DNA from: Escherichia phage CLB_P1
Sequence record: KC109329.1
Reading direction: 5' to 3' (one strand)
DNA: 40,218 nucleotides
The notes beneath the pieces are model-generated. The model was not told where the DNA came from, ran no database searches, and saw only the letters and a program-made list of their open reading frames with translations. Position 1 is the first letter of the stretch. Each line of letters starts with the position of its first letter. This document shows positions 2,386 through 39,476 of this stretch, one piece after another. A program made the translations under genes and the position numbers.

Positions 2386-2408
2386 ACTTAACTATCACTA
2401 TAGGACTC
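2386..2408 (+). promoter_or_regulatory. Phage RNAP promoter copy immediately upstream of the RNA polymerase gene (ACTTAACTATCACTATA/GGACTC)
   Basis: Matches the genome-wide 17-bp promoter core at -17..-1; the initiating region GGACTC differs from the GGGAGA of the strongest copy. Confidence 0.55.
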
Positions 2409-2477
2409 AAGGTCTAAGACTCCAAGTGAAAGACCAAAGAGACTTTAAGTGAAAGACTAATAACAAGGACTTTAAGT

Positions 2478-5159
2478 ATGAGCGTCATCTCTATTGACAA
2501 ACACGACTTCTCTGATGTGTCGAACGCCATTGAGCCGTTTAACCTGCTGGCTGACCACTACGGGCAAGACCTTGCAGTCAAACAGCTTCAGCTTGAGCAT
2601 GAGGCATACACTGAAGGCGAGCGACGTTTCATCAAGAACCTTGAGCGCCAGACTGAGCGCGGAGAACTGGCAGACAATCAGGTCGCCAAGCCTTTGATGC
2701 AGACTCTGGTCCCTAAGATTGCGCAAGCCGTCAAGGAGTGGCATGAAGGTCAAGACGGGAAGCTGTCAACCTCTCGTCCGAGCGTAGCGTTCACCATGTT
2801 GAGCACTGAAGAGAAGGCCGTCAAGGACCGCTCTCTGCGCATCTCCTGTGAGTCTGCTGCGGTTATCATACTGAAGGTCATCCTCTCCAAGCTGGTCAAG
2901 CCTGAAGGGATACCGATTACACCTATGGCCTCAGCGATAGGTCGCACACTTGAGGATGAAATCCGATTCGGTCGCATTCGTGACAAGGAGAAGGAGCACT
3001 TCAAGAAGGTGATAGCTGATAACCTGAACAAGAGAGCCGGGGCATCATACAAGAAAGCCTACATGCAAGCGGTCGAGACATCCATGCTGGAGCAGGGTCA
3101 ACTGGAAGATGCGTGGGGAACTTGGAGTCCGACAGAAGCGGTACACGTTGGCATCAAGATGCTTGAGATTGTCATACAGTCCACACAACTGGTCGAGCTT
3201 AAGCGTTACGGTGCTGGCAATGCAGCTGCTGACGTTGAGATGGTCCACCTGTCAGACTTCTGGGTCAAGAAGATGACACAACGTGGGTTCAGCCTTGCGG
3301 GTATTGCGCCAGTCTACCAGCCTTGCGTCGTTCCACCTAAACCGTGGACTGGTGTCGTAGGAGGTGGGTACTGGGCCAAAGGTCGCAGACCACTACCACT
3401 GATTCGCTTAGGGTCTAAGTCTGCGGTGGCGCGTTACGAAGACGTGTACATGCCTGAAGTCTATGACGCTGTGAATATCATCCAGAATACACCTTGGAAA
3501 GTTAACAAGAAGGTACTGGAAGTGGTGAACACGGTCGAGAAGCTGAACAACACGCCTATTGACGACATCCCTCAGATGGAGCCACTGAAGCCTGAAGACT
3601 ATGCGGGTGAGACTGAAGAGGAACTCAAGGCATGGAAGAAGGCTGCTGCTGGTATCTACCGCCGAGAGAAGGCCCGGCAGTCACGCAGATTGTCACTGAG
3701 CTTTATCGTTAACCAAGCGAACAAGTTTTCTCAGTTCAAGGCCATCTGGTTCCCGTACAACATGGACTGGCGCGGTCGCGTCTACGCTGTGCCGATGTTC
3801 AACCCTCAGGGTAACGACATGCAAAAGGGTCTACTGACTCTGGCAGTCGGCAAGCCTATTGGTGCCGATGGATTTAAATGGCTGAAGGTACACGGTGCAA
3901 ACTGTGCGGGTGTCGATAAAGTCACCTTCGAGGAGCGCATCAAGTGGGTGGAAGACAACCACGACAACATCATGGCTGCTGCTAAGGCACCGATGGACAG
4001 CATTGAGTGGTGGGGCAAGTTAGACTCTCCGTTCTGCTTCCTTGCGTTCTGCTTCGAGTATGCTGGCGTAATGCACCACGGATTGTCTTACTCCTGCTCG
4101 CTTCCGATAGCGTTCGATGGGTCCTGCTCTGGGATTCAGCACTTCAGCGCGATGCTTCGTGACCACATCGGTGGACATGCAGTAAACCTGACGCCTTCCG
4201 GTAAGGTCCAAGACATCTACCGCATCGTGTCTGACCGCGTTGAGGAGGAGCTTAAAGTCCTGCTGGTTAACGGCACGGACAACGAGATGGTAACTCACGA
4301 GGACAAGAAAACTGGTGAGATTACCGAACGTCTCAAGCTGGGGACACGAGAGCTGGCCCGGCAGTGGCTGACTTACGGTATGTCACGCAAGGTTACTAAG
4401 CGCTCAGTCATGACTCTGGCCTACGGGTCGAAAGAGTACGGCTTCGCAGACCAAGTTTATGAGGACATCGTGATGCCAGCGATTGACTCAGGGTCTGGCG
4501 CTATGTTCACCGAGCCAAGCCAAGCGTCTCGCTTCATGGCTAAGATGATTTGGGAAGCTGTGAGTGTGACCGTAGTTGCTGCGGTTGACGCGATGAAGTG
4601 GCTTCAAGGTGCTGCCAAGCTGCTGGCTGCTGAAGTGAAGGACAAGAAGACTGGTGAAATCCTGAAGCCTTGCCTTCCGGTACACTGGGTCACGCCTGAT
4701 GGTTTCCCGGTATGGCAGGAATACCGCAAGAAGGATACCACTCGTCTGAACCTGATGTTCTTAGGGTCCTTCAACCTTCAACCTACGGTCAACAAAGGTA
4801 CGAAGAAAGAGCTGGATAAGCACAAGCAGGAGTCAGGCATTAGCCCAAACTTCGTCCACTCACAAGATGGTAGCCACCTACGCAAGACTGTAGTCCACAC
4901 GCATCGCAAGTATGGCGTGATGTCATTCGCAGTGATTCACGATAGCTTCGGGACCATCCCGGCTGACGCTGAATATCTGTTCCGTGGTGTCCGTGAGACG
5001 ATGGTTGAGACATACCGCGACAACGATGTGCTGCTTGACTTCTACGAGCAGTTTGAATGCCAGCTTCATGAGAGCCAGCGCGACAAGTTGCCTGAGCTAC
5101 CGAAGAAAGGTAAACTGAATATCGAAGACATCTTGTCTTCAGATTTTGCATTCGCTTAA
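2478..5159 (+). CDS. Single-subunit DNA-directed RNA polymerase (T7 gene 1 homolog), 893 aa
   Basis: Full-length alignment with T7 RNAP from recall (DFS...PFN.LADHYG, PCVVPPKPWTG, WFPYNMDWRGRVYAV, HGANCAGVDKV, SPFCFLAFCFEYAGV, IHDSFGT, FAFA C-terminus). Confidence 0.97.
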   Translation: MSVISIDKHDFSDVSNAIEPFNLLADHYGQDLAVKQLQLEHEAYTEGERRFIKNLERQTERGELADNQVAKPLMQTLVPKIAQAVKEWHEGQDGKLSTSRPSVAFTMLSTEEKAVKDRSLRISCESAAVIILKVILSKLVKPEGIPITPMASAIGRTLEDEIRFGRIRDKEKEHFKKVIADNLNKRAGASYKKAYMQAVETSMLEQGQLEDAWGTWSPTEAVHVGIKMLEIVIQSTQLVELKRYGAGNAAADVEMVHLSDFWVKKMTQRGFSLAGIAPVYQPCVVPPKPWTGVVGGGYWAKGRRPLPLIRLGSKSAVARYEDVYMPEVYDAVNIIQNTPWKVNKKVLEVVNTVEKLNNTPIDDIPQMEPLKPEDYAGETEEELKAWKKAAAGIYRREKARQSRRLSLSFIVNQANKFSQFKAIWFPYNMDWRGRVYAVPMFNPQGNDMQKGLLTLAVGKPIGADGFKWLKVHGANCAGVDKVTFEERIKWVEDNHDNIMAAAKAPMDSIEWWGKLDSPFCFLAFCFEYAGVMHHGLSYSCSLPIAFDGSCSGIQHFSAMLRDHIGGHAVNLTPSGKVQDIYRIVSDRVEEELKVLLVNGTDNEMVTHEDKKTGEITERLKLGTRELARQWLTYGMSRKVTKRSVMTLAYGSKEYGFADQVYEDIVMPAIDSGSGAMFTEPSQASRFMAKMIWEAVSVTVVAAVDAMKWLQGAAKLLAAEVKDKKTGEILKPCLPVHWVTPDGFPVWQEYRKKDTTRLNLMFLGSFNLQPTVNKGTKKELDKHKQESGISPNFVHSQDGSHLRKTVVHTHRKYGVMSFAVIHDSFGTIPADAEYLFRGVRETMVETYRDNDVLLDFYEQFECQLHESQRDKLPELPKKGKLNIEDILSSDFAFA

Positions 5160-5171
5160 CAGGAGATAGTT

Positions 5172-5387
5172 ATGAAATTTGCACACAAGCAGGCTGGTGT
5201 TAATGGTGGGACTCAAATCGTGACCGTAACAGAACACAACGGCAAGGGTCTGGTGAAGACCACTGTCATCCCAACTGAGATGTCCAAGCAGCTTAACGTC
5301 CCGTTCAAGACTCTTGTATATCTGGTAGAGTCCAGCCACGAGAAGTACCTAAAGGACGCAGTGTCAAAACTGGAGCAGACCAAATGA
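5172..5387 (+). CDS. Hypothetical protein (71 aa)
   Basis: RBS AGGAGA before ATG; ORF between gene 1 and gene 1.1. Confidence 0.55.
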   Translation: MKFAHKQAGVNGGTQIVTVTEHNGKGLVKTTVIPTEMSKQLNVPFKTLVYLVESSHEKYLKDAVSKLEQTK

Positions 5388-5461
5388 CAGACCTACAGTT
5401 ACTGGCCTTGTGGCTAGGAGCACTCGCAGTATTCACTTTAATCCAACGCAGAAGAGGTTAA

Positions 5462-5484
5462 CCTAAACTATCACTATAGGATTA
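5462..5484 (+). promoter_or_regulatory. Phage RNAP promoter (CCTAAACTATCACTATA/GGATTA)
   Basis: Consensus 17-mer read directly; position corresponds to T7 phi1.1. Confidence 0.65.
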
Positions 5485-5526
5485 GACTCAAGGTCATGAC
5501 TCAAAGTCGTGGCCTTCATGATTAAC
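5483..5526 (+). promoter_or_regulatory. Conserved stem-loop, candidate RNase III processing site (R1.1-like)
   Basis: AAGGTCAT...GTGGCCTT stem that pairs only as RNA (two G-U wobbles); same element recurs at 12568 and 36254 with different loops. Confidence 0.4.
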
Positions 5527-5557
5527 CCTAAATAAACACTACTGGAGATTTAACCGT

Positions 5558-5737
5558 ATGTATCAGAACACTATCAACTTCGAGCGCATCCGTGAACGTC
5601 AGCAGACTGAAGGTTACATTCCTAAGGGCCGCAAGCTGAACAAAACTAAACGTGGTGGTGGTATCAAGGGCGCTTTCCGAAACGCTGAAGGTAAAGACTC
5701 TCTGGTTAACCAAGAGAAATACTTCGTAGGAGCATAA
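5558..5737 (+). CDS. gp1.1-like small basic protein (59 aa)
   Basis: Contains KGRKLNKTKR as in T7 gp1.1; ATG at 5558. Confidence 0.6.
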   Translation: MYQNTINFERIRERQQTEGYIPKGRKLNKTKRGGGIKGAFRNAEGKDSLVNQEKYFVGA

Positions 5738-5741
5738 CCAA

Positions 5742-7507: not shown

Positions 7508-7530
7508 CCTAAGCTATCACTATAGGACAA
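7508..7530 (+). promoter_or_regulatory. Phage RNAP promoter (CCTAAGCTATCACTATA/GGACAA)
   Basis: Consensus core read directly; -12 is G instead of A. Confidence 0.6.
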
Positions 7531-8305: not shown

Positions 8306-8464
8306 ATGAGCATTGAAGAAAAGAAATACATCGTGGAGCTTGAGGGTCGCATTCAGTCCTTCGAGGTTCCGGTGTACGCAAAGTCTCTTGAAGAGGCTAC
8401 CCTGAAGTCCCAAGAGTATGAGGATGCAGGGTTTGTGGTAGGACGGATTCGTCCTGAGACCTAA
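8306..8464 (+). CDS. gp2-like host RNA polymerase inhibitor (52 aa)
   Basis: SFEVPVYA...EA....AGF.VGRIRP matches the T7 gp2 core; RBS GGAGAAAGG. Confidence 0.7.
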
Positions 8465-8482
8465 ACTATCACTGTAGGACAG
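8460..8482 (+). promoter_or_regulatory. Phage RNAP promoter variant (CCTAAACTATCACTGTA/GGACAG), -3 G
   Basis: One mismatch to the consensus core at -3; upstream of the SSB gene as T7 phi2.5 is. Confidence 0.5.
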
Positions 8483-10372: not shown

Positions 10373-10588
10373 ATGATTAAACTTATTGAATTTCTTGGTC
10401 GTCTGGTGGTGCGTGGTTATCGTCGTGCTGCGGTACTGGAGCGAAAGGTAGAAAAGAAGACTGCTGACGGTGCGGCTGATGCTGCTGCTCTGGCTGACAA
10501 GCTGACCATCGCGTCACTGGAAGCGGGCATGAAGGCACGTCAAGCTGACACCAAAGCTGACCAGTTGGCCCAGTTCTTCAAAGCCTAA
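10373..10588 (+). CDS. Hypothetical protein (71 aa)
   Basis: RBS AAGGAG before ATG; Ala/Lys-rich predicted helical product. Confidence 0.55.
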   Translation: MIKLIEFLGRLVVRGYRRAAVLERKVEKKTADGAADAAALADKLTIASLEAGMKARQADTKADQLAQFFKA

Positions 10589-10606
10589 ACTATCACCTTA
10601 GGGATG
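10584..10606 (+). promoter_or_regulatory. Degenerate phage promoter-like site (CCTAAACTATCACCTTA/GGGATG)
   Basis: Upstream half matches consensus exactly; -4/-3 are CT instead of TA. Confidence 0.35.
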
Positions 10607-12401: not shown

Positions 12402-12566
12402 GTGTTAAAGAAACTTAAAGCTCGATACCATCGGTTCATGTACAAATGGTGGAGCGAAGAAGCAACCTGCCTGTCGAACATTCTGGGAGACCAAAGGTTC
12501 GACTCTAAGGCATGGAAGAAAGCTAACCGGAAGTTTATGTATCACTTCTTGCGTACAGACTTCTAG
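12402..12566 (+). CDS. Small hypothetical protein (GTG start, 54 aa)
   Basis: GGAGGA with 8-nt spacing before GTG at 12402; an in-frame ATG at 12438 is an alternative start. Confidence 0.3.
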   Translation: MLKKLKARYHRFMYKWWSEEATCLSNILGDQRFDSKAWKKANRKFMYHFLRTDF

Positions 12567-12567: not shown

Positions 12568-12614
12568 TCTAGACTCAAGGTCATTCACATTGAGTGGCCT
12601 TTATGATTAGACTA
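12568..12614 (+). promoter_or_regulatory. Conserved stem-loop, candidate RNase III processing site (R4.7-like)
   Basis: AGACTCAAGGTCAT-loop-GTGGCCTTTATGATTA; same stem as at 5483 and 36254 with a different loop. Confidence 0.4.
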
Positions 12615-12629
12615 AACGGAGGATTAACC

Positions 12630-13031
12630 ATGTTTGATTGCATTGAGTGGACCGGGTGTCGAGATAGTTTCGGCTACGGTATGCGAAAGGTCAACGGGAA
12701 GGTCCGTAGACTGCATCTGATAGCCTTCGAGGAGGCGAATGGTCCGATACCAGAGGGAATGGTCGTGAGGCACAAATGCGACAACCCAGCGTGCTACAAT
12801 CCAGAACACTTGGAGCTGGGGACAAGGGCTGAGAACAATCACGATAGAGACATTAGAGGTCGAACCGCTAAAGGCGTGCGACATGGAAGCTCTAAGCTTA
12901 CACCTGAAATAGTACAAGAGGCCAAGGTGCTTTACGCAGGAGGTGGCTGGACTCACCGCTCCTTAGGTAAGAAGTATGGAGTGGGTCACCGCACACTGGC
13001 TAGAGCAATTGGAGGAGAAACATGGACTTAA
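12630..13031 (+). CDS. HNH homing endonuclease (free-standing, between primase/helicase and DNA polymerase)
   Basis: NGPIPEGMVVRHKCDNPACYNPEHLELGTRAENNHD motif; GGAGGA RBS 7 nt before ATG at 12630. Confidence 0.8.
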   Translation: MFDCIEWTGCRDSFGYGMRKVNGKVRRLHLIAFEEANGPIPEGMVVRHKCDNPACYNPEHLELGTRAENNHDRDIRGRTAKGVRHGSSKLTPEIVQEAKVLYAGGGWTHRSLGKKYGVGHRTLARAIGGETWT

Positions 13032-15034
13032 GTAACGTATATGGGTCTGACATCGAGACCAATGGTCTACTTGATACAGTCTCCCAGTTTCACTGTGGGG
13101 TCCTGATTAACGCCGAGTCGAATGAGACCCTTAAGTATGGGGTAGCTCCGATGGTCGGTATCGTCGGTGGCTTCAAAGAGTATGTTCATAAAGTGGAAGA
13201 GATTGCCGCATCTCCTGATGGTATGCTGGTATTCCATAACGGTATCAACTATGACGTCCCGGCTATCGACAAGCTGAAGCGTCTGTACTTTGGTAAACGA
13301 TTTAACTTCCCGAAACACAAGATGATTGATACCTTGGTGCTGGGCCGCTTGATGTATCCAAACATTAAGTTCTCAGACATGGGCGCGGTGAAAGCTGGTC
13401 GTCTGCCACCTAAGATGATGGGGCGCCAGTCTCTTGAGGCTTGGGGCTATCGTCTAGGTGAGATGAAGGGTGAGTACAAACACGATTACGTTGCCAAATG
13501 CAAGGCTGAAGGTATCGAATATAAGGCTGGGGACGAATGGTTGTTCCCGTCTCAGGAGATGCTGGACTATAACGTTCAAGACGTTGTGGTCACACTGGCG
13601 TTGTTCAAGAAGTTCCTGACTGACAAGTATTACTTCCAGTCTGAACAGTTCGCTTTCGACCAGATTTATGCGTTGCGTCTGGAACATGATGCTGCGTGGA
13701 CCTGTGCGAAGATGGAACGTAACGGCTATCCGATGAACACCGAGATGGTCGAAGGCTTATATCGTGAACTCACCGTCAAACGTGCAGAGCTGCTGGACAA
13801 GCTGCGTTCGACTTTCGGTAGCTGGTATGCACCGAAGGGAGGCAAGGAGTTCTTCAAGCACCCACGTACAGGCAAGGACCTTCCTAAGTATCCGCGAGTC
13901 GTGTATCCTAAGGTCGGTGGCATCTTTAAGAAGCCGAAGAACAAAGCTCAACGATTAGGTCTTGAGCCTTGCGAGTTCGACTCACGAGACACGATGGAAG
14001 GAGCGCCATTCACGCCAATAACTTACGTTGAGTTTAATCCGGGAAGCGGAGACCACTTAGCGAAAGTCCTGATGGAGCGTGGCTGGGAACCTGTGGACTT
14101 CACTGACACCGGGAAGCCTGTAGTCGATGACGAGACGTTAGAACACGTTAAGTTACCAGACGAAGAGGCTCAGGCTTGCGTAGAGCTGGTCCGTGAGTAT
14201 CTGGTAGTCCAGAAGCGCATCGGTCAGGCGGCTGAAGGTAAGAACGCATGGTTGAAACTTGTAGGTCCAGACGGACGTATGCACGGTTCAATCAACCCAT
14301 GTGGTGCAGTAACCGGACGTGCGACCCATAGTACACCAAACATGGCTCAGGTCCCGGCTAACGGTGCCCCATACGGTGAGACTTGCCGTGGTGCTTTCGG
14401 TGCAGCGTGGAACAAGAAGGACGGCAAGCCAGACCCTTGGATTCAAGTAGGTGTGGATGCCTCAGGTCTTGAGCTTCGTTGTCTGGGGAACCGAGCGGCT
14501 CCGTTTGATGGTGGTGACTATGCGAAGACTGTAGTCGAAGGTGACATCCACTGGGCAAACGCAGTCAACGCTGGACTAGCACCTAACGTCCCACGCGACA
14601 AGTCTAGCCATGACCATGATGCTTTCCGTAATAACGCTAAGACGTTCATCTATGCGTTCCTGTATGGTGCAGGGGCCGCTAAGATTGGACTGATAGTCGG
14701 AGGTGGTAAGAAGGAGGGTTCAGCTCTCATGAAGAAATTCATTGAGGGTACACCAGCTATCAAGGACCTCAGGGAAGCTGTACAGAACACGCTCATCTCC
14801 GAGTCCAAATGGGTGGACGGTGAGAACATCGTGAAGTGGAAACGTCGCTGGCTGAAAGGTCTGGATGGTAGACGCATTCACATCCGGTCGCCACACTCAG
14901 CACTTAACGCTCTACTTCAGGGTGACGGTGCGGTTGTCTGTAAACACTGGATTGTTGAGACTGAACGTATGCTTGAAGAGGCCGGGTATGTCCACGGCTG
15001 GGAAGGAGACTTTGCGTACATGGCATGGGTGCAT
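13022..15034 (+). CDS. DNA polymerase (T7 gene 5 homolog), exon 1 (codons 1-671; a TAA stop follows in the intron)
   Basis: DIETNGLLD exonuclease motif, YNVQDVVVT, PRTGK.LPKYPR, KVGGIFKKPKNKAQR, GRATH, DASGLELRC, NAKTFIYAFLYGAG, GDFAYMAWVH as in T7 gp5. Confidence 0.95.
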
Positions 15035-15632
15035 TAACATCATGGTGCACATTAAATCTGGTGAACTCGGTGAACTCCTAATGGGACAATACCGAGCCAA
15101 GCCATAGGGAGGATGTATGAGAGGCAAGAAGTTAATTCTTGAGGCCACTGAGACTGGCTGCATAATCCCTACGTCACATAAATTGAATCAGGATGGATAC
15201 TTCCGAAAGAGGACTAACGGTGTCCTTGAGATGTATCATAGAACTGTATGGATTAAAGCTAATGGTCCAATACCTGAAGGTTTCGAAGTAGACCACAAGT
15301 GTCGTAATAGAGCTTGTTGCAACGTCGAACATCTACAAGTATTATACCGGGACTCACACTTAGTCAAGACCAACAAAGAGCGATACGCTGCTAGGAAGCT
15401 AGAAGCACGAGACTACTGGGTAGAGACTGGGTGTACTGGAACGAAGTTAGCCGAAGTATTCAATGTGTCGTTCTCAGCCGCCTGTGGGTGGATTAGAGAG
15501 TGGAAGGCGTAGAGACTATCCGAAAGGAGTAGGGCCGTGGGTGAGATTCCCACGTAACCCGAAGCGCCAGACAGTCACCTCAAAGACTGATGATATAGTC
15601 CGACACTTCCAGTAATGGGAGAATACAGAAAG
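15035..15632 (+). mobile_element. Putative group I intron with embedded HNH homing endonuclease gene, interrupting the DNA polymerase gene
   Basis: Exon ends in U (15034); exon GUGCAU pairs with GUGCAC at 15045-15050 (U-G at the splice site); G at 15632; joining 15034 to 15633 restores the conserved polymerase C-terminus in frame. Confidence 0.65.
15117..15512 (+). CDS. HNH homing endonuclease encoded within the polymerase intervening sequence
   Basis: NGPIPEGFEVDHKCRNRACCNVEHL motif; RBS GGGAGG before ATG; lower GC than flanking sequence by eye. Confidence 0.85.
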   Translation: MRGKKLILEATETGCIIPTSHKLNQDGYFRKRTNGVLEMYHRTVWIKANGPIPEGFEVDHKCRNRACCNVEHLQVLYRDSHLVKTNKERYAARKLEARDYWVETGCTGTKLAEVFNVSFSAACGWIREWKA

Positions 15633-15788
15633 GATGAGTTACAGATTGCTTGTCGTACTCAAGAAATAGCAGAACGTACAGTAGAAATTGCTCAACTTGC
15701 TATGCGTAAGGTGGGTGAGTTCTATAACTTTAAATGTGTCCTTGATACCGAAGGTAAGATTGGACCAACGTGGAAGGAGTGTCACTAA
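15633..15788 (+). CDS. DNA polymerase exon 2 (C-terminal 51 aa: DELQIACRTQEIAE...FKCVLDTEGKIGPTWKECH)
   Basis: Colinear with T7 gp5 C-terminus (DEIQVGCRTEEIAQ...FRCLLDTEGKMGPNWAICH); an in-frame ATG at 15615 could alternatively give a separate 57-aa peptide. Confidence 0.7.
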   Translation, partial: DELQIACRTQEIAERTVEIAQLAMRKVGEFYNFKCVLDTEGKIGPTWKECH

Positions 15789-16511: not shown

Positions 16512-17367
16512 GAAGATAGCTCTGGTGCTGGATGGTGACTATCTGGTCTTCTCTTCTATGGCTGCTGCCGAGGACGAGACAGACTGGGGTGATGACATCT
16601 GGACCCTTATCTGCGACCACGAGAAGTCCCGTCGTATCCTTGAGAACACCATCGCTGAAATCATTAAGAAGCGAAAGGCGTGGAAAGACGCTAAGATTGT
16701 GATGTGCTTCACCGACGATGAGAACTGGCGCAAGTCCATCCTGCCTACCTATAAGGCCAACCGTAAAGGTTCTCGCAAGCCTGTAGGTTACAAGAAGTTC
16801 GTAGCCGAAGTGATGGCTGACCCACGGTTCAACAGCTTCCTGCGGCCAACGCTGGAGGGAGATGACTGTATGGGTATCATCGGGACACGACCTCAGATTG
16901 TAGGTTGTGACCATGCGGTTCTGGTATCCTGCGATAAGGACTTCAAGACCATCCCTAACTGTGAGTTCTTCTGGTTAACCACTGGTGAAATCCTGAGTCA
17001 TACGACTGCTGAGGCAGACTACTGGCACATGGAGCAGACCATCAAGGGTGACACTACAGATGGCTACGGCGGGATTCCGGGGATGGGTGAGGACACCACT
17101 CGTGCGTTCCTTGACGAGCCGTACTACTTCGTGCAGGAGAGCCGTGAGCTTAAGACTGGTAAGAACAAAGGCCAGATTAAGACTGAGTGGAAGAAGTATC
17201 CAAAGCGTGAAGACATGACGCTGTGGGACTGCATGGTTACTCTGGCGGCTAAAGCTGGGATGACCGAGGAGGAACTTCTGGTCCAAGCTCAGGTCGCTCG
17301 TATTTGCCGAGCCTCCGACTATGACCCTAAGTCCAAGGAGGTCATCCTGTGGACACCATCCATGTGA
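16498..17367 (+). CDS. 5'-3' exonuclease (T7 gene 6 homolog)
   Basis: LDGDYLVF, CFTDD.NWRK, YKANRK...KPVGY, LEGDD.MG, SCDKDFKTIPNC.F.W.TTG.IL, IKGD.TDGY.GI.G, LWDC, KAGMTEE. Confidence 0.95.
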   Translation: MTSGKKIALVLDGDYLVFSSMAAAEDETDWGDDIWTLICDHEKSRRILENTIAEIIKKRKAWKDAKIVMCFTDDENWRKSILPTYKANRKGSRKPVGYKKFVAEVMADPRFNSFLRPTLEGDDCMGIIGTRPQIVGCDHAVLVSCDKDFKTIPNCEFFWLTTGEILSHTTAEADYWHMEQTIKGDTTDGYGGIPGMGEDTTRAFLDEPYYFVQESRELKTGKNKGQIKTEWKKYPKREDMTLWDCMVTLAAKAGMTEEELLVQAQVARICRASDYDPKSKEVILWTPSM

Positions 17368-17493: not shown

Positions 17494-17516
17494 ACTAAAC
17501 TATCACTATAGGGACT
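17494..17516 (+). promoter_or_regulatory. Phage RNAP promoter (ACTAAACTATCACTATA/GGGACT)
   Basis: Consensus core read directly; precedes the gene 6.5-6.7-7 cluster. Confidence 0.65.
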
Positions 17517-17577
17517 TTAGGACCTAAGATATGACTATAAGATAGACTTTAGTCTTAACTTAAAGAGGAGATTCAAG

Positions 17578-18750: not shown

Positions 18751-20319
18751 ATGGCTGAACGTGAAGGGTTCGCTGCTGAAGGAGCCAAAGCGGTCTATGA
18801 CCGACTGAAGAACGGTAGACAGCCATATGAGACACGCGCTCAGAACTGTGCTGCTGTCACTATCCCGTCACTGTTTCCTAAGGAGTCAGACAACTCATCT
18901 ACTGAGTATACCACTCCGTGGCAATCCGTAGGTGCTCGCTGCTTGAACAACTTGGCTGCAAAGCTGATGTTGGCGTTATTCCCTCAGTCACCGTGGATGA
19001 GACTGACAGTCTCCGAATATGAGGCAAAGACCTTGAGTCAGGACTCAGAGGCTGCTGCTCGTGTTGACGAAGGACTGGCTATGGTCGAGCGTGTATTGAT
19101 GGCCTACATGGAGACTAACAGTTTCCGTGTCCCATTGTTCGAGGCCCTGAAGCAGCTTATCGTCTCAGGTAACTGCCTGCTCTACATTCCTCCTCCAGAA
19201 CAAGGAACCTACAGTCCGATGCGGATGTACCGATTAGTGTCTTACGTTGTTCAACGTGATGCGTTCGGTAACATCTTGCAGATTGTGACTCTCGACAAGG
19301 TAGCGTTTAGTGCTCTACCGGAAGACGTGAAGTCTCAACTCAACGCAGACGACTATGAGCCTGACACCGAGCTTGAAGTGTATACGCACATCTACCGTCA
19401 AGACGACGAGTATCTACGCTACGAGGAAGTGGAAGGAATTGAGGTAGCAGGGACCGATGGTTCCTACCCGCTGACTGCATGTCCGTACATCCCGGTACGA
19501 ATGGTTCGACTGGATGGTGAAGACTACGGTCGTTCTTACTGCGAGGAGTATCTGGGAGACCTGAACTCTCTGGAGACGATTACAGAAGCTATCACCAAAA
19601 TGGCTAAGGTAGCCTCCAAGGTGGTGGGCCTCGTTAACCCGAACGGCATCACGCAACCTCGACGTCTGAACAAGGCGGCTACAGGTGAGTTCGTGGCTGG
19701 TCGCGTTGAGGACATCAACTTCCTGCAACTGACGAAAGGTCAGGACTTTACGATTGCTAAGTCGGTGGCTGACGCTATCGAGCAACGTCTAGGCTGGGCC
19801 TTCCTTCTCAATAGTGCTGTTCAGCGTAATGCTGAGCGAGTCACTGCCGAAGAGATTCGTTATGTTGCTGGCGAACTGGAGGCGACCTTAGGTGGCGTGT
19901 ACTCAGTACAGTCACAAGAGCTTCAGTTACCTATCGTCCGTGTGCTGATGAACCAGCTTCAGTCTGCTGGCATGATTCCTGACCTTCCGAAAGAAGCGGT
20001 AGAGCCTACTGTCTCCACTGGTCTGGAAGCGTTAGGTCGTGGTCAAGACTTAGAGAAGCTGACTCAGGCAGTCAACATGATGACCGGGCTACAGCCTCTG
20101 CAACAGGACCCAGACATTAACTTGCCGACCCTGAAGCTGCGACTGCTGAATGCCTTAGGTATTGACACTGCTGGGTTGCTGCTGACTCAGGACGAGAAGT
20201 TGCAACGTATGGCTGAACAATCCGCTCAAGGAGCTGTGGTCAACGGTGCGTCTGCTGCTGGTGCTAACATGGGAGCTACTGTTGGACAAGTAGCTGGTGA
20301 GGACGTGGCTCAAGCCTAA
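18751..20319 (+). CDS. Portal (head-to-tail connector) protein, T7 gene 8 homolog
   Basis: 522 aa; position and length match T7 gp8; RBS AAGGAGG upstream. Confidence 0.93.
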   Translation: MAEREGFAAEGAKAVYDRLKNGRQPYETRAQNCAAVTIPSLFPKESDNSSTEYTTPWQSVGARCLNNLAAKLMLALFPQSPWMRLTVSEYEAKTLSQDSEAAARVDEGLAMVERVLMAYMETNSFRVPLFEALKQLIVSGNCLLYIPPPEQGTYSPMRMYRLVSYVVQRDAFGNILQIVTLDKVAFSALPEDVKSQLNADDYEPDTELEVYTHIYRQDDEYLRYEEVEGIEVAGTDGSYPLTACPYIPVRMVRLDGEDYGRSYCEEYLGDLNSLETITEAITKMAKVASKVVGLVNPNGITQPRRLNKAATGEFVAGRVEDINFLQLTKGQDFTIAKSVADAIEQRLGWAFLLNSAVQRNAERVTAEEIRYVAGELEATLGGVYSVQSQELQLPIVRVLMNQLQSAGMIPDLPKEAVEPTVSTGLEALGRGQDLEKLTQAVNMMTGLQPLQQDPDINLPTLKLRLLNALGIDTAGLLLTQDEKLQRMAEQSAQGAVVNGASAAGANMGATVGQVAGEDVAQA

Positions 20320-20337
20320 ACTATCACTATAGGAACA
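20315..20337 (+). promoter_or_regulatory. Phage RNAP promoter (CCTAAACTATCACTATA/GGAACA)
   Basis: Consensus core; upstream of the scaffold gene (phi9 position). Confidence 0.65.
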
Positions 20338-21323: not shown

Positions 21324-21346
21324 ACTAAACTATCACTATAGGGAGA
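21324..21346 (+). promoter_or_regulatory. Phage RNAP promoter, best consensus copy (ACTAAACTATCACTATA/GGGAGA), phi10 equivalent
   Basis: Full core plus GGGAGA initiating sequence, followed by an AU-rich leader and strong RBS before the capsid gene. Confidence 0.75.
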
Positions 21347-22761: not shown

Positions 22762-22764
22762 TTG

Positions 22765-22806
22765 AAACCCCTTGGGTGCCTTCGGGTGCTTGAGGGGTTT
22801 TTTTTG
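22765..22806 (+). terminator. Intrinsic terminator after the capsid gene (T-phi equivalent)
   Basis: AAACCCCTTGGGTGCCTTCGGGTGCTTGAGGGGTTT hairpin followed by TTTTTTTT; closely resembles the T7 T-phi hairpin. Confidence 0.85.
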
Positions 22807-22820
22807 CTTAAGGAGGGCCT

Positions 22821-26005: not shown

Positions 26006-26028
26006 CCTTAACTATCACTATAGGGACT
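26006..26028 (+). promoter_or_regulatory. Phage RNAP promoter (CCTTAACTATCACTATA/GGGACT)
   Basis: Consensus core; phi13 position. Confidence 0.65.
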
Positions 26029-32400: not shown

Positions 32401-33293
32401 TCGATGACCGATGGCTGAAGACCGCTGGTATCTCTGACGAGCAGTGGAATGGAATTAAGTCCCTAATCCGTGAGTCAGTGACTCGTGGTCCAGACGGGAA
32501 GTATACCATCAAGGATAAGAAGGCGTTCAGTCAGGACCCAAGGGCTATGGACCTGTGGCGTATGGGCGACACCATCGCTGACGAAACGTTACTCCGTCCT
32601 CATAAGCTGAGCAACATGGACGCCAAGGCTTATGGTCCTCTGGCTAAGACTGTCCTTCAGTTTAAGAACTTCGTCATCAAGTCCATCAATGGGCGTACCA
32701 TGCGAACCTTCTATAACGCCACGAAGAACAACCGAGCGATGGATGCTGCTCTGTCCACTGTGATGTCTATGGGTCTTGCTGGTATCTACTACATGGCTCA
32801 GGCACACATCAAGGCTTACGCTATGCAGGATGGTCGTGACCGTGAGTACCTGAAGCAGGCCCTGAACCCTACGATGATTGGCTATGCCGCTCTGTCCCGT
32901 AGCTCCCACTTGGGTGGACCACTTGGGGTCGCTAACATTCTTGGTGGTATCGCTGGGTATGAGGACACTAAGATGCTCCGTTCATCTATCCTGCCCCGTT
33001 CGCCTACAGAGAAGCCTGAACGTGCCATCGCGTATGGTGCAGCTACAAGTGACCCTGTGATGAATGTTGTTGGTAACTTCTTGGAGCAGGTTCCAGCTTT
33101 CGGATATGCTGCTAACGTTGGCGCTTCGGCTTACAACTTGGCTGGCTACCTCAAGGCTGATACTCGTGTCAACGAGCGTGACTACATGACCGGGATGTAT
33201 AATACGTTCCGTGAACTGGTTCCGAACGACCCAATTACCCAGAAGCTGTTGCTTGGAACGTTTGAGGAGCAAGGTATCCACATCAAGGACTAA
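29406..33293 (+). CDS. Internal virion protein D (T7 gene 16 homolog) with a non-canonical N-terminal ~195-aa domain
   Basis: From about residue 200 aligns with T7 gp16 (STWFGFG..EAE, PTRWN.H.W..EEL, GVDPL.YVP, RLEARETARN, SPTGMQSGASGK, YGISH..QF, GLVG.ENNSFLEARNLFDSD, GNVRAL, RSPFTK.LNGTTNYLLDA); the N-terminus lacks the lytic-transglycosylase motif recalled for T7. Confidence 0.9.
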   Translation: MATRGIRNNNPGNIRVSKDQWEGMTGDDGAFVTFDSPESGVRALGKNLLSYGRQGYDSIEKIINRWAPPNENDTKAYIDSVVAATGIPATQSLDLSDPDTLSSLAQAISFHETGSRYDPEVYQKGVARALNGISPKTPPVSANVFDALTEGLKSKPKVSLGENLPTAAGLNIEGQAPEAPNESFGEMFYKATGETMQEREERSTWFGFGSATEAEVKNSMVGVAIRAGQTEDSLDVIGDVFNPTRWNNHKWSREELDQIRNAGVLPQYYGVITGGSPQNLTELINLALENQKLDAEKSKAGTGAQLAAGVIGAGVDPLTYVPIAGQVGKGGKLVNKMFTVAAQSGALAGASELARTSVAGGDAYVAEAIMGGALFGGGMTAIGDAIGKALGKSTNEFAGPATRLEARETARNVDGQDLSRLPIQEGEQTFSHQGVKFADVPNEPGSVRLEDGSILIGENPLNPKTRQVFDEVIEPERAAAGVNLGGLTEIGLKLLRSENPEIRGVAADLVRSPTGMQSGASGKIGTTASDVFERLRAVDHRFYNDIDDAVTEALKDPYFQTAFWRDSGAFRQDIYQRVSMAIEDGSGNLKSELTPGELKVYDLLKNQFDAKREMMENPAMFGRPDAQSIFPGSRFKGTYVPHVYSKQMKELYIKELGSPEALQEAIKKSWLTSYASRPEVKKRVDEALLEADPTLTPEGLAAAVDKYANDKAYGISHTEQFERSSVMEENINGLVGLENNSFLEARNLFDSDMSIVLPNGQTFSVNNLREWDMDKIVPAYNRRVNGDIAIMAGTGKTTKEMKDLVETMMNKAGDDGKLKGEVSTLRDTLKILTGRARRDGADDAAFATVMRTMTDLSFFAKNAYMGVQNLTEIGGMLARGNVRALLHGVPIFRDLAFRNKKVGASEIKDLHNVIFGKELDDSIRPSKQDVIDRLRAYSALSKPTATALGSAKYYTGELAVRSPFTKVLNGTTNYLLDAGRQGFLSDIVEHSLTGSKRKFDDRWLKTAGISDEQWNGIKSLIRESVTRGPDGKYTIKDKKAFSQDPRAMDLWRMGDTIADETLLRPHKLSNMDAKAYGPLAKTVLQFKNFVIKSINGRTMRTFYNATKNNRAMDAALSTVMSMGLAGIYYMAQAHIKAYAMQDGRDREYLKQALNPTMIGYAALSRSSHLGGPLGVANILGGIAGYEDTKMLRSSILPRSPTEKPERAIAYGAATSDPVMNVVGNFLEQVPAFGYAANVGASAYNLAGYLKADTRVNERDYMTGMYNTFRELVPNDPITQKLLLGTFEEQGIHIKD

Positions 33294-33311
33294 ACTATCA
33301 CTATAGGAAAC
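33289..33311 (+). promoter_or_regulatory. Phage RNAP promoter (ACTAAACTATCACTATA/GGAAAC)
   Basis: Consensus core; phi17 position upstream of the tail fiber gene. Confidence 0.65.
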
Positions 33312-33357: not shown

Positions 33358-34335
33358 ATGTCCACGATTACACAATTCCCTTCAGGAAACACTCAGTACA
33401 GGATTGAGTTCGACTACCTAGCCAGAACGTTTGTTGTTGTTACGCTGGTGAATAGCTCTAACCCTACCCTTAACCGTGTACTGGAAGTTGGTCGAGATTA
33501 CCGATTCCTTAATCCAACGATGATTGAGATGTTGGTTGACCAATCAGGTTTCGACATCGTTCGTATTCACCGTCAGACTGGAACTGACTTAGTGGTAGAC
33601 TTCAGGAATGGCTCAGTGTTGACAGCTAGCGACCTGACCAATGCAGAGCTTCAGGCTATCCATATTGCAGAAGAAGGTCGAGACCAAACGGTTGACTTAG
33701 CGAAGGAATATGCCGATGCTGCTGGTGACTCTGCTGGCAACGCTAAGGATAGCGAGGACGAAGCACGACGAATCGCTGAGAGTATCAAGGCAGCTGGTCG
33801 AATTGGCTATATTACCCGTCGCTCCTTCGAGAAAGGCTTCAACGTTACAACATGGAACGAGGTCCTGTTATGGGAAGAGGATGGTGAGTATTACCGCTGG
33901 GATGGTACGCTTCCAAAGAACGTTCCTGCTGGTTCAACTCCTAACACCGCTGGGGGCATTGGTTTAGGTGCGTGGGTTGGCGTTGGTGATGCATCATTGC
34001 GCAGCAATTTATCAGAAAATGATGGCGCCTTGATAGTAGGTGGAGCTATTCTTGAATGCCAAACGGTAGCACAGGCGCAAGAGATATCTGGTTTAACGGA
34101 AGGTCGAAAGGTAAGAACATACTATTATAATGTCCCAGTTGTAACAGATTGGGTGTTCACCCCCACCGCGCCGTCCGGTGGGGTTTTCTACATTCCCGCT
34201 GTCGGTGGTTACTTGATATTAATGACGCCTAACTTCGCTTCCGCTGGCATTATTGAAGGTGAATATGTTCCGCTAAACGCCGCACATAACCGTAATGTAA
34301 TTCAAAAAACTGGTAAGAGACACAAGATTCAGTAA
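33358..34335 (+). CDS. Tail fiber protein, conserved N-terminal tail-attachment domain with divergent, shorter C-terminal part (325 aa)
   Basis: N-terminal ~150 aa align with T7 gp17 (F.YLAR.FVVVTL, DYRF, LVDF..GS.L.A.DL, H.AEE.RD); remainder unlike T7 and lower GC from about 34000. Confidence 0.85.
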
Positions 34336-34337
34336 AT

Positions 34338-35636
34338 TTGAATATGGAGCAACAGGTTACTTTTTATGTTCTCGGCTCTATTCATCCATTACGAGATAAT
34401 ATAGAAATACACCACGAAGCTGGGGTTACAGTTATGGGGCGTTACGATGACCCCACGGTAGGTCCAGAAATTATGGGGTTAAACTCCGGCGGTATGTGGT
34501 CCTTTGCACACTTTCTCAACCCTGATGCAACGGTTTGGGATGACAATAACTACACAATTACAGCTGTTATGAAAAATGTTACCTACGTTCTTAACGGAAA
34601 GATAGGTACAGAATATAACTCCATTCATTCTAAACCGCACAACAACAACCCTATTGGTTTCTTTACTTGTGAAAACTGTAGCGTTGTCGGCTCTGGCGGG
34701 GTTATTGGGTCTGACCACCGAGGCATTAACGTAGATGGTGCAGGGGATAATTGCCGTATAGATATCGGGTACGCTACAGGAACCAGCAACAACCCGATTC
34801 AAATGAAAATAAACGCTGAACGCTACGCTTTTGTTAAAGTTGGTGCGGTCTATGGGGTTAAGTTTGATGGCGGTCAAACAAAGGCTGTGGTGTGGTGCGG
34901 CGGTGGGCGTGTTGATGTAGAAGTCGGTAACTACAGGTGGGATGGGGTGAATAAACCAATCCTCGCTTACGGCAACGGTTGCCAGGAAATAACTTTAAAG
35001 GCTGGCATAATATCCGGCGTTTCGCAATTAATACGTCAGTACAATACCCCTGTAGCTAGAGTTCTGTCAGCATGGGTTAATAATACAGACTCTCTCATAA
35101 ACAAAGCAGAAGATTCTGACAAGGAAGGTGTGACCAAGATTTCTGAGATTCGAGGTGTGAACGCCGTCGACACGGTACTAACTAGCGCATTCTATGATGA
35201 AACGAAATTAGCGAATCAAGATGTTGTTACTATAACCGGAAACGATTTCAGAAACGCTGGACCATCATTCCTTTACTTTAAAGGTAAAACAGCTGGTGGT
35301 GCTATTAGGTTGTGGAACGTTAATAACAACCTCGACCCTGTAGGTCTTGCGGACCTTTCAGACTGGAATATTTTGCTGGGGCAAAGTGTCGTTACTACAG
35401 TTTCAGCAACTTCTTTCACGTACACTATGTCCCGTAGATATGAAAATATCACAATTGCCGTAACGGAATCCGCCACCCTACGGTATGTTACGGTTAGCTT
35501 ACGAGCGCACCTGTCGTCGTCAACTACGGCGTCATACATAGTCGGCGGCACGTCTATGACTGTCTCGAGGTCCGGCGATATTTTTACTTTTACGGTTAAC
35601 TCCGGAACTATAAATTTTTACGTATTACATAACTAA
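34338..35636 (+). CDS. Putative separate tailspike / receptor-binding protein (432 aa) in a low-GC module
   Basis: Long ORF directly after the short tail fiber gene; Gly/Asn/Val/Thr-rich; visibly AT-richer than the genome; own terminator. Start may be the ATG at 34344. Confidence 0.55.
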   Translation: MNMEQQVTFYVLGSIHPLRDNIEIHHEAGVTVMGRYDDPTVGPEIMGLNSGGMWSFAHFLNPDATVWDDNNYTITAVMKNVTYVLNGKIGTEYNSIHSKPHNNNPIGFFTCENCSVVGSGGVIGSDHRGINVDGAGDNCRIDIGYATGTSNNPIQMKINAERYAFVKVGAVYGVKFDGGQTKAVVWCGGGRVDVEVGNYRWDGVNKPILAYGNGCQEITLKAGIISGVSQLIRQYNTPVARVLSAWVNNTDSLINKAEDSDKEGVTKISEIRGVNAVDTVLTSAFYDETKLANQDVVTITGNDFRNAGPSFLYFKGKTAGGAIRLWNVNNNLDPVGLADLSDWNILLGQSVVTTVSATSFTYTMSRRYENITIAVTESATLRYVTVSLRAHLSSSTTASYIVGGTSMTVSRSGDIFTFTVNSGTINFYVLHN

Positions 35637-35786: not shown

Positions 35787-35981
35787 ATGATTGAGTTAGA
35801 CTTCAAGAATGAGGTCCTTAAAGCCTCTCCTATCGTCGGGACCGCTGCGGCTGATGGTGCCAGTCGGTTCTTCTTCGGACTTACACTGAACGAATGGTTC
35901 TACGTTGCAGCTATCGCGTACACCGTTGTCCAGATTGGTGTGCTAGTCTACAAAACGATTAAAGGAGGAGGTAAAACATGA
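35787..35981 (+). CDS. Class II holin (T7 gene 17.5 homolog)
   Basis: LDF.NE..KA.PIVGT...D...R.FFGL.LNEWFYVAAIAYTVVQIG as in T7 gp17.5. Confidence 0.85.
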   Translation: MIELDFKNEVLKASPIVGTAAADGASRFFFGLTLNEWFYVAAIAYTVVQIGVLVYKTIKGGGKT

Positions 35982-36241: not shown

Positions 36242-36253
36242 ATCTCTTAAGTG

Positions 36254-36298
36254 TTAGACTCAAGGTCATTACTGTATGTAGTGGCCTTTATGGTTAAC
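36254..36298 (+). promoter_or_regulatory. Conserved stem-loop, candidate RNase III processing site (R18.5-like)
   Basis: AGACTCAAGGTCAT-loop-GTGGCCTTTATGGTTA; third copy of the motif. Confidence 0.4.
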
Positions 36299-36351
36299 AC
36301 TAACTAGTGGAGGAGACTCTACGTGAAATCTGATAAACCGGGAGGGCACCT

Positions 36352-36804
36352 ATGCTCGAATTTCTAAAGAGAGCGGCTCCGTGGTTACTCGCAGCAGTGA
36401 TGTTTGCTGGGGGCTACCACACCGCTAACAATAAGTGGGAGGCTAAGGTCAATGCAGAATACACCTCGAATCTTAAGGCATCGGAGGATACAAGGCTTGC
36501 TGTCCAAGCTGAAGTCAACAAAGTGTCCAAACGGTTTCAGGACGAAATGTCCTCGCTGGAAGGCAGCACTGATAGGATTATTGCTGACCTTCAGTCTGAC
36601 AATAAGCGGTTGCGCATCCGAGTCAAACCTACGAGTGGAACCACGCAAAGTGACGGTCGATGCGTCATTGATGGTTACGCCGAACTTGACGAACGAGATG
36701 CTAAACGTCTTATCGCCATCGGACTGAAAGGGGACTCTTGGATTAAAGCACTACAGGATACTATTCGAAAACTTCAACAAGACAAGGAGAAAGACAATGG
36801 GTAA
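36352..36804 (+). CDS. Rz-like i-spanin (T7 gene 18.5 homolog)
   Basis: MLEFL, EGSTDRII.DL.SDNKRLR.RVK, DGRAELD.RDAKR, GD.WI.ALQDTIR.LQ as in T7 gp18.5. Confidence 0.88.
   Translation: MLEFLKRAAPWLLAAVMFAGGYHTANNKWEAKVNAEYTSNLKASEDTRLAVQAEVNKVSKRFQDEMSSLEGSTDRIIADLQSDNKRLRIRVKPTSGTTQSDGRCVIDGYAELDERDAKRLIAIGLKGDSWIKALQDTIRKLQQDKEKDNG
36452..36727 (+). CDS. Rz1-like o-spanin lipoprotein embedded in the +1 frame of the Rz-like gene (gene 18.7 homolog)
   Basis: PRWK.ALIGL.L....TISGCASES (lipobox ISGC) and SLMV.PNLT.EMLNV as in T7 gp18.7; start ATG at 36452 inferred. Confidence 0.65.
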   Translation: MQNTPRILRHRRIQGLLSKLKSTKCPNGFRTKCPRWKAALIGLLLTFSLTISGCASESNLRVEPRKVTVDASLMVTPNLTNEMLNVLSPSD

Positions 36805-37588
36805 TATTATTACTTTGAAAACTGACGTAGTTTGGCATTTTGCTACTGGTACACCCTCTGGACTGAAGAACGCATCCGGTCACTTGTTATCTGGTACAAT
36901 ATACGTGAAAGTCCCAGCTAACGCCGAGTCTACAAGGATTACACTAAGCGACGGTACGTCTGCTACTGGTAATTTCTCCGATGGTGGCGGCTGGCCTCTA
37001 CAATCAGGCAGTGTACGTCTGGAAGTGGTTGGTAACACAGAAGACGACTTCCTTATTCTTAAAGTCACCAAGCTGAATGACAGTGGCGTCGGACTTGTTA
37101 AGGTAGAGTATACTTATCGGGAGTCACGTCCTGTATCCCACGCTGAGTATTCTCTGGATACCTTCAACTGGTCAGGAACCCAAGTGTGTGCGGCTGGTCA
37201 GTTCACTAACCTAATGACTCTACCTTTAGTGAAGGGAGTGGATAGCGGCGTCGTTACTATCTCCGAAGGAAAGATGCTGTTCCCAGCTAAAGAGGGACTC
37301 AGTAGTGTAAACTTCGTCGTTCGGTTCGCTGGTGAGTTCCCTACAGCCTCAGCTCATAAGTGGCGATTGCAGCTTCGTAGACCAGATAACACTACCCTAT
37401 CTTCCGTGACGGACACAGATGACCAGCAGTCATTCACCATTCGTGAGGCAGCCATCCATAGCTACATAGCTAATACAGACGACCCGTTCGTTACTACTGG
37501 CATCATGCTTGGCATTGAAGTTACCGGGTCTGAGGACCTTACTCTGTCCTCCCTGACTGTTCGCGTTGACTGCATCTTTAACTCTTAA
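36797..37588 (+). CDS. Hypothetical protein of unknown function (263 aa) between the spanin genes and terminase large subunit
   Basis: ATG overlaps the spanin stop (ATGGGTAA); long uninterrupted ORF with genome-typical composition; no recognised motif and no T7 counterpart at this position. Confidence 0.6.
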
Positions 37589-37599
37589 GAGGTGAAGCA

Positions 37600-39363
37600 T
37601 TGAGTAAAGACTTAGTGGCGCGTCAGGCGCTAATGACTGCACGTATGAAGGCAGACTTCGTGTTCTTCCTGTTCGTCCTGTGGAAAGCTCTGTCACTCCC
37701 AGTCCCGACTCGCTGTCAGATTGACATGGCGAAGAAACTATCGGCTGGGGACAACAGGCGCTTCATCCTACAGGCGTTCCGTGGTATAGGGAAGTCCTTC
37801 ATTACGTGTGCCTTCGTTGTCTGGAAGCTATGGAACAACCCAGACTTGAAGTTCATGATTGTGTCTGCCTCAAAGGAACGAGCCGATGCTAACTCCATCT
37901 TCATCAAGCGTATCATCGACCTCATGCCTCAGCTTCGGGAACTCAAACCTAAGCAGGGACAGCGAGATGCGGTTATCAGCTTCGACGTTGGACCAGCCAA
38001 GCCAGACCACTCACCTTCGGTTAAGTCAGTTGGTATCACAGGTCAGTTGACTGGTAGTCGTGCTGACATCTTGATTGCCGATGACGTAGAGGTTCCGAAC
38101 AACTCAGCGACTCAGGCTGCACGAGACCGTCTGTCAGAGCTTGTGAAAGAGTTCGACGCTATCCTGAAGCCGGGAGGTACAATCATCTATCTGGGTACTC
38201 CTCAGAACGAGATGACCTTGTATCGTGAGCTGGAAGGCCGTGGGTACACCACTACTATCTGGCCTGCTCGTTATCCACGCGACAGGAAGGACTGGCAGTC
38301 TTACGGCGACCGTCTGGCACCGATGCTTCAGGCAGAGCTTGAAGAGGACCCTGAGGCCTTCTACTGGCGTCCGACCGATGAAGTTCGCTTCGACGATACT
38401 GACCTGAAGGAACGTGAGCTGTCCTATGGTAAAGCTGGCTTCGCTCTACAGTTCATGCTTAACCCGAACCTGAGTGATGCCGAGAAGTACCCTCTGAAGC
38501 TCCGTGACCTTATCGTAGCAGACTTGGACCCAGCATCCAGCCCAATGGTCTACCAATGGTTGCCTAACCCTCAGAACAAGCGTGAGGACGTTCCTAACGT
38601 TGGACTCATGGGCGACTCATACCACACGTACCAGACTGTAGGTTCTGCCTTCAGTTCGTACACCCAGAAGATTCTGGTCATTGACCCTAGCGGTCGTGGT
38701 AAGGATGAAACTGGTTATGCGGTACTGTATCAGCTCAACGGCTACATCTTCGCTATGGAAGTCGGAGGTATGCGTGGTGGTTATGAAGACTCTACTCTGG
38801 AAGCGCTAGCTAAGATTGGTCGTAAGTGGAAGGTCAACGAATACGTCATTGAGGGTAACTTCGGTGATGGTATGTACCTTGAGCTATTCAAGCCTGTAGC
38901 GGCCCGTATCCATCCTGCGGCTGTAACTGAAGTGAAGAGTAAGGGTCAGAAAGAACTCCGCATCTGTGACGTTCTGGAGCCTATCATGGGGTCTCACAGA
39001 CTTATCGTCAACGCTGCTGCTATCGTCCAAGACTATCAGACAGCCGCTGATAAGGATGGTGTTCGTAACCCTATCTACTCTCTCTTCTACCAGATGACAC
39101 GTATCTCTCGTGAACGCGGAGCCTTGGCACACGATGACCGACTTGATGCGCTGGCTATCGGTGTACAGTTCTTCGTTGAGTCTATGGCTAAGGATGCCAA
39201 CAAAGGCGAACGTGAAGTCACTGAGGAGTGGCTGGAGGAACAGATGGAGAACCCACGGAAAGGCTTCGAGTCCATCCACACTGAGTTCTGGGACAATGGG
39301 GTCCGGGTAACTCACAATACGGACGACGAGCTGGGACTAGGGGCTTACGTTACGTTCCACTAG
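37600..39363 (+). CDS. Terminase large subunit (T7 gene 19 homolog), probable TTG start
   Basis: Walker A-like [16 protein letters not shown], nuclease-domain region; 587 aa like T7 gp19; GAGGTGA RBS 5 nt before TTG at 37600, no RBS before the first in-frame ATG. Confidence 0.93.
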
Positions 39364-39453
39364 CTGAATAACTATAGGCGAAAACTGAATTAATAAGCAG
39401 TTAGTAACCTATAGTTACTACCAGTCTAACCTACTGTTTTACAAGGAGTTTGG

Positions 39454-39476
39454 ACTTAACTATCACTATAGGGAAG
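39454..39476 (+). promoter_or_regulatory. Phage RNAP promoter near the right end (ACTTAACTATCACTATA/GGGAAG), phiOR equivalent
   Basis: Consensus core read directly; located between terminase and the right-end small gene as in T7. Confidence 0.65.

Follow-up and report, generated by a model that had tools for sequence, protein, structure and literature searches.

The sequence analysed here is the 40,218-nucleotide (nt) stretch of Escherichia phage CLB_P1 in record KC109329.1, referred to at its full length as the window. Gene 1 of the window encodes a single-subunit RNA polymerase (gp1) of 893 amino acids (aa), and eleven copies of a 23-bp promoter-like motif are found between positions 2386 and 39476 (Table 1). 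The window is a complete Kayfunavirus genome (K1F-like, T7 supergroup), a placement that rests on comparison of a 10-kb stretch and on T7-like synteny. The 10-kb stretch is 100% identical to the Kayfunavirus CLBP1 record OZ035730.1 and shows 91–93% identity to many other Kayfunavirus records over 90–98% of the query.

A search of the window with the exact 20-mer pattern MCTWAACTATCACTATAGGR gives eight matches, all on the + strand (2386, 5462, 17494, 20315, 21324, 26006, 33289 and 39454), and the mean number of matches in 100 dinucleotide-preserving shuffles is 0.00. The 15-mer core AACTATCACTATAGG with up to two mismatches adds three + strand sites, at 7508 (A to G at −12), 8460 (A to G at −3) and 10584 (T to C at −4 and A to T at −3), for a total of eleven. 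A log-odds matrix made from the eleven sites scores them at 31.0–37.4 bits; outside these sites, the two highest scores on either strand of the window are 15.0 and 11.8 bits. The information content of the set is approximately 36 bits, equal to that of the T7 promoter set (36.7 bits). The preliminary description of this DNA had listed the same eleven copies, all on the + strand, and the motif search, the shuffles and the weight matrix bear this out; its entry of site 7508 as a full match has to be corrected for the variant base at −12.

The sites have the organisation of 23-bp T7-type promoters, with conservation from −17 to +6, a single orientation, a location upstream of genes, a CACTATAG core and a G at +1. 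Positions −12 to −8 read ACTAT in ten sites and GCTAT in the remaining one. Upstream, positions −17 to −13 read (A/C)CT(A/T)A, and the C at −16 and T at −15, both A in T7, occur in all eleven sites without exception. A candidate twelfth site at 12834 (AACAATCACGATAGA, three mismatches, inside an HNH open reading frame) was rejected; about 0.8 such matches are expected by chance and its matrix score is below 8 bits. A degenerate promoter copy is present at 17523–17545 (CCTAAGATATGACTATAAGATAG), 29 nt downstream of phi6.5; it scores 15 bits and was left out of the count. This copy may be what is left of a promoter duplicated in tandem, similar to T7 phi1.1A/B.

Every one of the eleven sites is situated at a gene boundary, 30–186 nt from the next + strand open reading frame start. 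The intergenic position given in the preliminary description is thus roughly correct, but at sites 8460, 10584, 20315 and 33289 the motif extends over the final 5 nt of the open reading frame before it, stop codon included. Site 21324 begins 1 nt past the gene 9 stop codon. The three variant sites precede DNA-metabolism genes, and strong consensus sites precede genes 6.5, 9, 10, 13 and 17, with a strong terminator after gene 10. This arrangement of site strengths by gene class, together with the terminator, points to T7-style middle and late gene expression. The phi10 site reads GGGAGA at +1 to +6, as do T7 class III promoters. The terminator is found at the same position as T7 Tphi and as a terminator annotated in phage Ro45lw.

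Table 1. Promoter sites, gene 1 and terminator in the window. Promoter coordinates cover −17 to +6.
Feature	Position	Strand	Remarks
Promoter 'phi1', ACTTAACTATCACTATAGGACTC	2386..2408	+	Predicted start G 2403, 75 nt upstream of the RNA polymerase gene; 23-mer identical in K1F and CR44b
Gene 1, single-subunit RNA polymerase, K1F type, 893 aa	2478..5159	+	Pfam and T7 RNA polymerase structure matches
Promoter phi1.1-like, CCTAAACTATCACTATAGGATTA	5462..5484	+	Predicted start 5479; exact motif match
Promoter phi1.6-like, variant, G at −12, CCTAAGCTATCACTATAGGACAA	7508..7530	+	Predicted start 7525; variant base kept in K1F, CR44b and Ro45lw
Promoter phi2.5-like, variant, G at −3	8460..8482	+	Predicted start 8477; overlaps stop of gene 2-like open reading frame; upstream of single-stranded DNA-binding protein gene (8523)
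Promoter before gene 4, CACCTTAGG	10584..10606	+	Predicted start 10601; weakest match (31.0 bits); upstream of primase/helicase gene (10657)
Promoter phi6.5, ACTAAACTATCACTATAGGGACT	17494..17516	+	Predicted start 17511; exact motif match
Promoter phi9	20315..20337	+	Predicted start 20332; overlaps last 5 nt of gene 8
Promoter phi10, ACTAAACTATCACTATAGGGAGA	21324..21346	+	Predicted start 21341; upstream of major capsid gene (21449)
Tphi-like terminator	22764..22809	+	17-pair stem, then T8 run; lies between genes 10 and 11
Promoter phi13	26006..26028	+	Predicted start 26023; exact motif match
Promoter phi17	33289..33311	+	Predicted start 33306; overlaps last 5 nt of gene 16; upstream of tail-fibre gene (33358)
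Promoter phiOR	39454..39476	+	Predicted start 39471; approximately 580 nt before right-end repeat (starts near 40053)

The T7 promoter consensus differs from that of the window at −17 to −14 and at −12 to −9, whereas −13 and −8 to +2 (TCACTATAGG) are the same. The divergence at −12 to −8 had been recognised in the preliminary description, but the positions −17 to −14, which also differ, were omitted from it. Over the 15 positions of the core, the window consensus shows 4 differences from T7, 3 from T3, 5 from K11 and 5 from SP6, the T3 and SP6 consensi being taken from general background. A search of the whole window with the T7, K11 and SP6 cores at up to two mismatches shows no match except one SP6-like sequence at 17046 with two mismatches, which is taken as a chance match. 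Matches to the T3 core at three mismatches are the K1F-type sites themselves, save two (33388 and 37237).

Phage K1F (NC_007456) and Citrobacter phage CR44b (HG818823) share the eleven sites and their order with the window, and have the same variant bases at the three variant sites. Of the eleven 23-mers, 9 are the same in K1F as in the window, the other two having 1 and 3 differences, and 10 are the same in CR44b. Escherichia phage Ro45lw (MK301532), a member of the same genus, has ten of these sites and a different one before gene 5. The 23-mers share 98.4% identity with the window in K1F, 99.2% in CR44b and 97.8% in Ro45lw, and the corresponding values for the flanks of ±100 nt are 89.8%, 87.7% and 76.6%. 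Thus the promoters have changed less than the sequence around them. In the CR44b record, all eleven carry the label 'predicted promoter'; ten stand before genes 1, 1.1, 1.6, 2.5, 4A, 6.5, 9, 10, 13 and 17, the remaining one stands after gene 19, and the one before gene 1 is at 1814–1836. Seven promoters are annotated in the Ro45lw record; the pre-gene 1 site of Ro45lw has an A at −2 and carries no annotation. In IMG/VR, the promoter 18-mer is found several times per contig in approximately 25 contigs, nearly all of which are 39–40 kb in length.

The gp1 sequence gives Pfam matches to RNA_pol (PF00940; 357.8 bits, 1e-106, cut-off 22) and RPOL_N (PF14700; 54.4 bits, cut-off 30.1). Residues 1–893 match the T7 RNA polymerase chains 1aro and 1cez (phmmer, E = 0). 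The aa sequence identity is 98.8% to the K1F polymerase, 98.4% to CR44b, 94.4% to Ro45lw and 64.0% to T7, and the catalytic residues D537, K631, Y639 and D812 (T7 numbering) are all conserved in the alignment. Over T7 residues 735–780, gp1 is identical to K1F and CR44b; the Ro45lw polymerase has two conservative differences in this region, M750L, which is inside the Q744–I761 hairpin, and T to S at the position aligned with T7 K765. Compared with T7, the gp1 hairpin Q744–I761 shows Q744T, Q754S, R756N and I761V and keeps R746, N748 and Q758. With S754, N756 and V761 present and the hairpin identical to that of K1F, gp1 belongs to the K1F type. An altered specificity loop had been proposed in the preliminary description, which named N748, R756 and Q758 as residues of the T7 loop; R756 is indeed replaced by N, but the other two residues are conserved. 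The peptide that it quoted, NLQPTVNKGTKKELDKHKQESG, is found in the 893-aa open reading frame and does display the R756N change, but it starts at T7 position 756 and leaves out 744–755. Most of the other differences in this peptide lie beyond 761, outside the stretch used in the published graft described below.

The function of a K1F-type polymerase and promoter pair has been studied by others. Temme et al. (2012) grafted the K1F hairpin (T7 Q744–I761) into T7 RNA polymerase and used the K1F subfamily consensus at promoter positions −12 to −7; the resulting T7(K1F) gave a 17-fold induction on its own promoter and was orthogonal to the T7, T3 and N4-type pairs (PMC3458549). The K1F graft consists of 632S, 754S, 756N and 761V with the cognate sequence ACTAT (NAR 2025, PMC11880802, Table 2); this table and the K1F genome are the source of the K1F promoter sequence used here. 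The window has the three loop substitutions of the graft (754S, 756N and 761V) as well as ACTAT. Purified Ro45lw RNA polymerase transcribes in vitro from the minimal promoter ACTTAACTATCACTATAGGGA, and sequencing of the 5′ end identified +1 as G (Takatsuki et al., JBC 2025, PMC12272871). The sequence ACTTAACTATCACTATAGGGA is that of the window site at 39454 over −17 to +4. The promoter repeats of another Kayfunavirus, described in a 2026 genome paper, have the same consensus, CTWAACTATCACTATAGG (PMC13298934). A specificity distinct from those of T7, T3, SP6 and K11, as put forward in the preliminary description, is therefore supported by the core differences, the loop changes and the published K1F graft and Ro45lw data. 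Comparison with sequenced T7-like phages shows that it is the known K1F/Kayfunavirus type, hence not a new one.

The best explanation is that the eleven 23-bp motifs are promoters of the phage's own single-subunit RNA polymerase, gp1, of the K1F type, and we place the probability of this at approximately 0.96. The sites, their conservation and the identity of the loop with that of K1F are direct observations. Published experiments on near-identical proteins have shown the pairing of the loop with ACTAT and initiation at the +1 G, which by analogy would apply to gp1. By homology with T7 we infer the timing, the relative promoter strengths and the individual residue-base contacts. As in the T7 model, host RNA polymerase would transcribe the early genes at the left end, gene 1 included. 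The phage polymerase would bind each −17 to +6 element as duplex DNA, with the N-terminal AT-rich recognition loop contacting −17 to −13 and the C-terminal specificity hairpin reading −12 to −7 in the major groove. The CACTATA segment, which is common to T7, would be melted, and the first G of GG(G/A) would be the start of the RNA. At −12 to −9, the replacement of T7 CGAC by ACTA is matched by the hairpin changes Q754S, R756N and I761V, and R746, N748 and Q758 are kept alongside C at −7 and T at −8.

Several points weigh against this explanation or parts of it. N748 is retained, yet the bases at −11 and −10 are not those of T7, and thus the three canonical residues do not fully explain the residue-base code. 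Ro45lw shows no match within two mismatches at the pre-gene 4 position, where the window has site 10584, and carries a one-mismatch site, GCTTAACTATCACTGTAGGATAG, at 12445–12467 just upstream of gene 5; the 10584-type site is thus dispensable or mobile. Judging from these genome sequences, promoter positions turn over within Kayfunavirus. The activity of the variant sites 7508, 8460 and 10584 is a prediction. Transcript mapping or in vitro transcription for this isolate or for the native K1F enzyme was not found in the literature covered, which does not extend to Scholl and Merril (2005) and Chen and Schneider (2005).

The conservation of −12 to −8, invariant in ten of the eleven sites and maintained across four genomes with flanks at 77–90% identity, is difficult to reconcile with the alternative that these are promoters without a truly distinct specificity, with T7 or T3 promoters also recognised by the polymerase and neutral drift behind the change at −12 to −9. 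This alternative draws on the core difference from T3 of only 3 of 15 positions, on non-cognate pairs of the Temme set that are still fairly active, with an orthogonality index of 8 (PMC11880802), and on a variable background of T7 RNA polymerase on test promoters (PMC12272871). However, the loop swap alone redirected T7 RNA polymerase to ACTAT promoters, and the window contains no T7-type or K11-type site; cross-recognition is thus improbable as an explanation. Still less credible is the proposal that the motifs are dispersed non-transcriptional repeats (replication origins, packaging or recombination signals, or homing-endonuclease targets) that only resemble promoters: the T7 promoters phiOL, phi1.1A/B and phiOR, which also act in replication initiation and concatemer processing, offer a precedent, and site 39454 near the right end and the HNH endonuclease open reading frames agree with it, but all eleven sites are oriented as the genes and lie just upstream of open reading frame starts, CACTATAGG is common to the sites and T7 promoters, and the same sequence is active as a promoter with Ro45lw RNA polymerase (94% identical) in vitro and with the K1F-loop chimera in vivo. 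The proposal is largely refuted by the published transcription in vitro, and if the sites act in replication at all, this would come second to their promoter function, as it does in T7.

With the motifs read as promoters of gp1, there are further differences from T7 outside the hairpin. The region of the N-terminal AT-rich recognition loop (residues ~90–125) reads DGKLSTSRPSV in gp1 versus KAK-RGKRPT in T7, and an 11-residue insertion is present just after it. The corresponding T7 loop contacts −17 to −13 in the structure of the promoter complex (1cez). The −17 to −13 element and the N-terminal loop of gp1 may form a second co-evolved specificity element, outside the published loop grafts. T7(K1F) is a chimera, with the T7 backbone, TAATA at −17 to −13 and the T7 N-terminal AT-rich loop (PMC3458549; Segall-Shapiro 2014, PMC4299498). 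In addition, the promoter 75 nt upstream of gene 1 could provide positive autoregulation of the polymerase. The combined proposal, i.e. a second specificity determinant in the natural K1F-type system plus a gene 1 promoter giving an autoregulation that T7 does not have at this position, is tentative, and we consider its chances to be somewhat short of even. If true, recognition of the upstream element would have co-diverged with the hairpin and loop-only grafts would hold only part of the natural orthogonality. The −17 to −13 element, the N-terminal loop and the gene 1 self-promoter could aid the construction of better-insulated polymerase/promoter pairs.

Other transcription signals and features of the window are as follows. 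A sigma-70-like site, TTGACA-17-TAGTAT, is present at the left end (425–453). The simple scan for sigma-70 sites and terminators gives fewer matches than shuffles and was used only for this site and for the Tphi-like hairpin. An early terminator (TE equivalent) was not detected in the window after the ligase gene. The left terminus of K1F, TCTCACAGT..., maps to position 40053, and the window is thus a circular permutation of the complete linear genome. The terminal repeat of approximately 179 bp, 95% identical to that of K1F, spans the end and the start of the window (40053–40218 and 1–13) and is present in a single copy.

The DNA polymerase gene, gene 5, is split in the window. Residues 1–671 of CR44b gp5 correspond to 13022–15034 and residues 672–722 to 15633–15785. 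The insert consists of 598 nt. An Rfam scan of the whole window at the gathering threshold shows no match; the insert gives a full-length match to the group I intron at 15025–15622, with an E-value = 4e-7 and 35.7 bits, which is below the gathering score of 50. An HNH_3 endonuclease open reading frame is situated inside the insert at 15117–15512. The insert in the 13022–15785 region looks like a group I intron with a homing endonuclease, in keeping with the joined gene 5 coding sequence in the K1F record. A free-standing HNH_3 homing-endonuclease open reading frame of 145 aa (12594–13031) is found directly upstream of gene 5 and overlaps the gene 5 start; it resembles CR44b gene 7.7B. The rejected promoter-like match at 12834 falls within this open reading frame.

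The receptor-binding module (33358–35636) begins with a gp17 of 325 aa that contains the T7 tail-fibre N-terminal domain and a Tail_spike_N adaptor domain. The short gp17 is followed by a 432-aa open reading frame with no Pfam match. In K1F, gp17 is a 1064-aa endosialidase, whereas the window has the 325-aa adaptor-type gp17 and then the 432-aa open reading frame. Such an organisation is suggestive of a tail spike in two parts and of a host that is not K1-capsulated E. coli.

In near-identical phages, the K1F promoter and polymerase specificity has already been described, annotated and studied by experiment. The K1F pair has served synthetic biology as a standard orthogonal part since 2012, and the present result carries little weight as a discovery. 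It does show that raw sequence alone is enough to recover the full promoter regulon of a phage together with the loop change that matches it.

The promoter set resembles that of T7 in placement. The agreement with the T7 promoter map claimed in the preliminary description holds for ten sites (phi1.1, 1.6, 2.5, before gene 4, 6.5, 9, 10, 13, 17 and OR), which have a T7-like placement relative to genes. It does not hold for site 2386, since T7 has no phage promoter at the corresponding position upstream of the RNA polymerase gene and T7 phiOL lies further left. It does not hold for the number of promoters either, which is 11 in the window and 17 in T7; the T7 promoters phiOL, phi1.3, phi3.8, phi4c, phi4.3 and phi4.7 have no equivalent in the window. 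K1F is similar to the window in having a split gene 5 with an HNH insert and differs from it in the tail-fibre module and early-region open reading frames, differences that leave the promoter system unaffected. In CR44b, unlike the window, gene 5 is uninterrupted and extra homing endonucleases are present.

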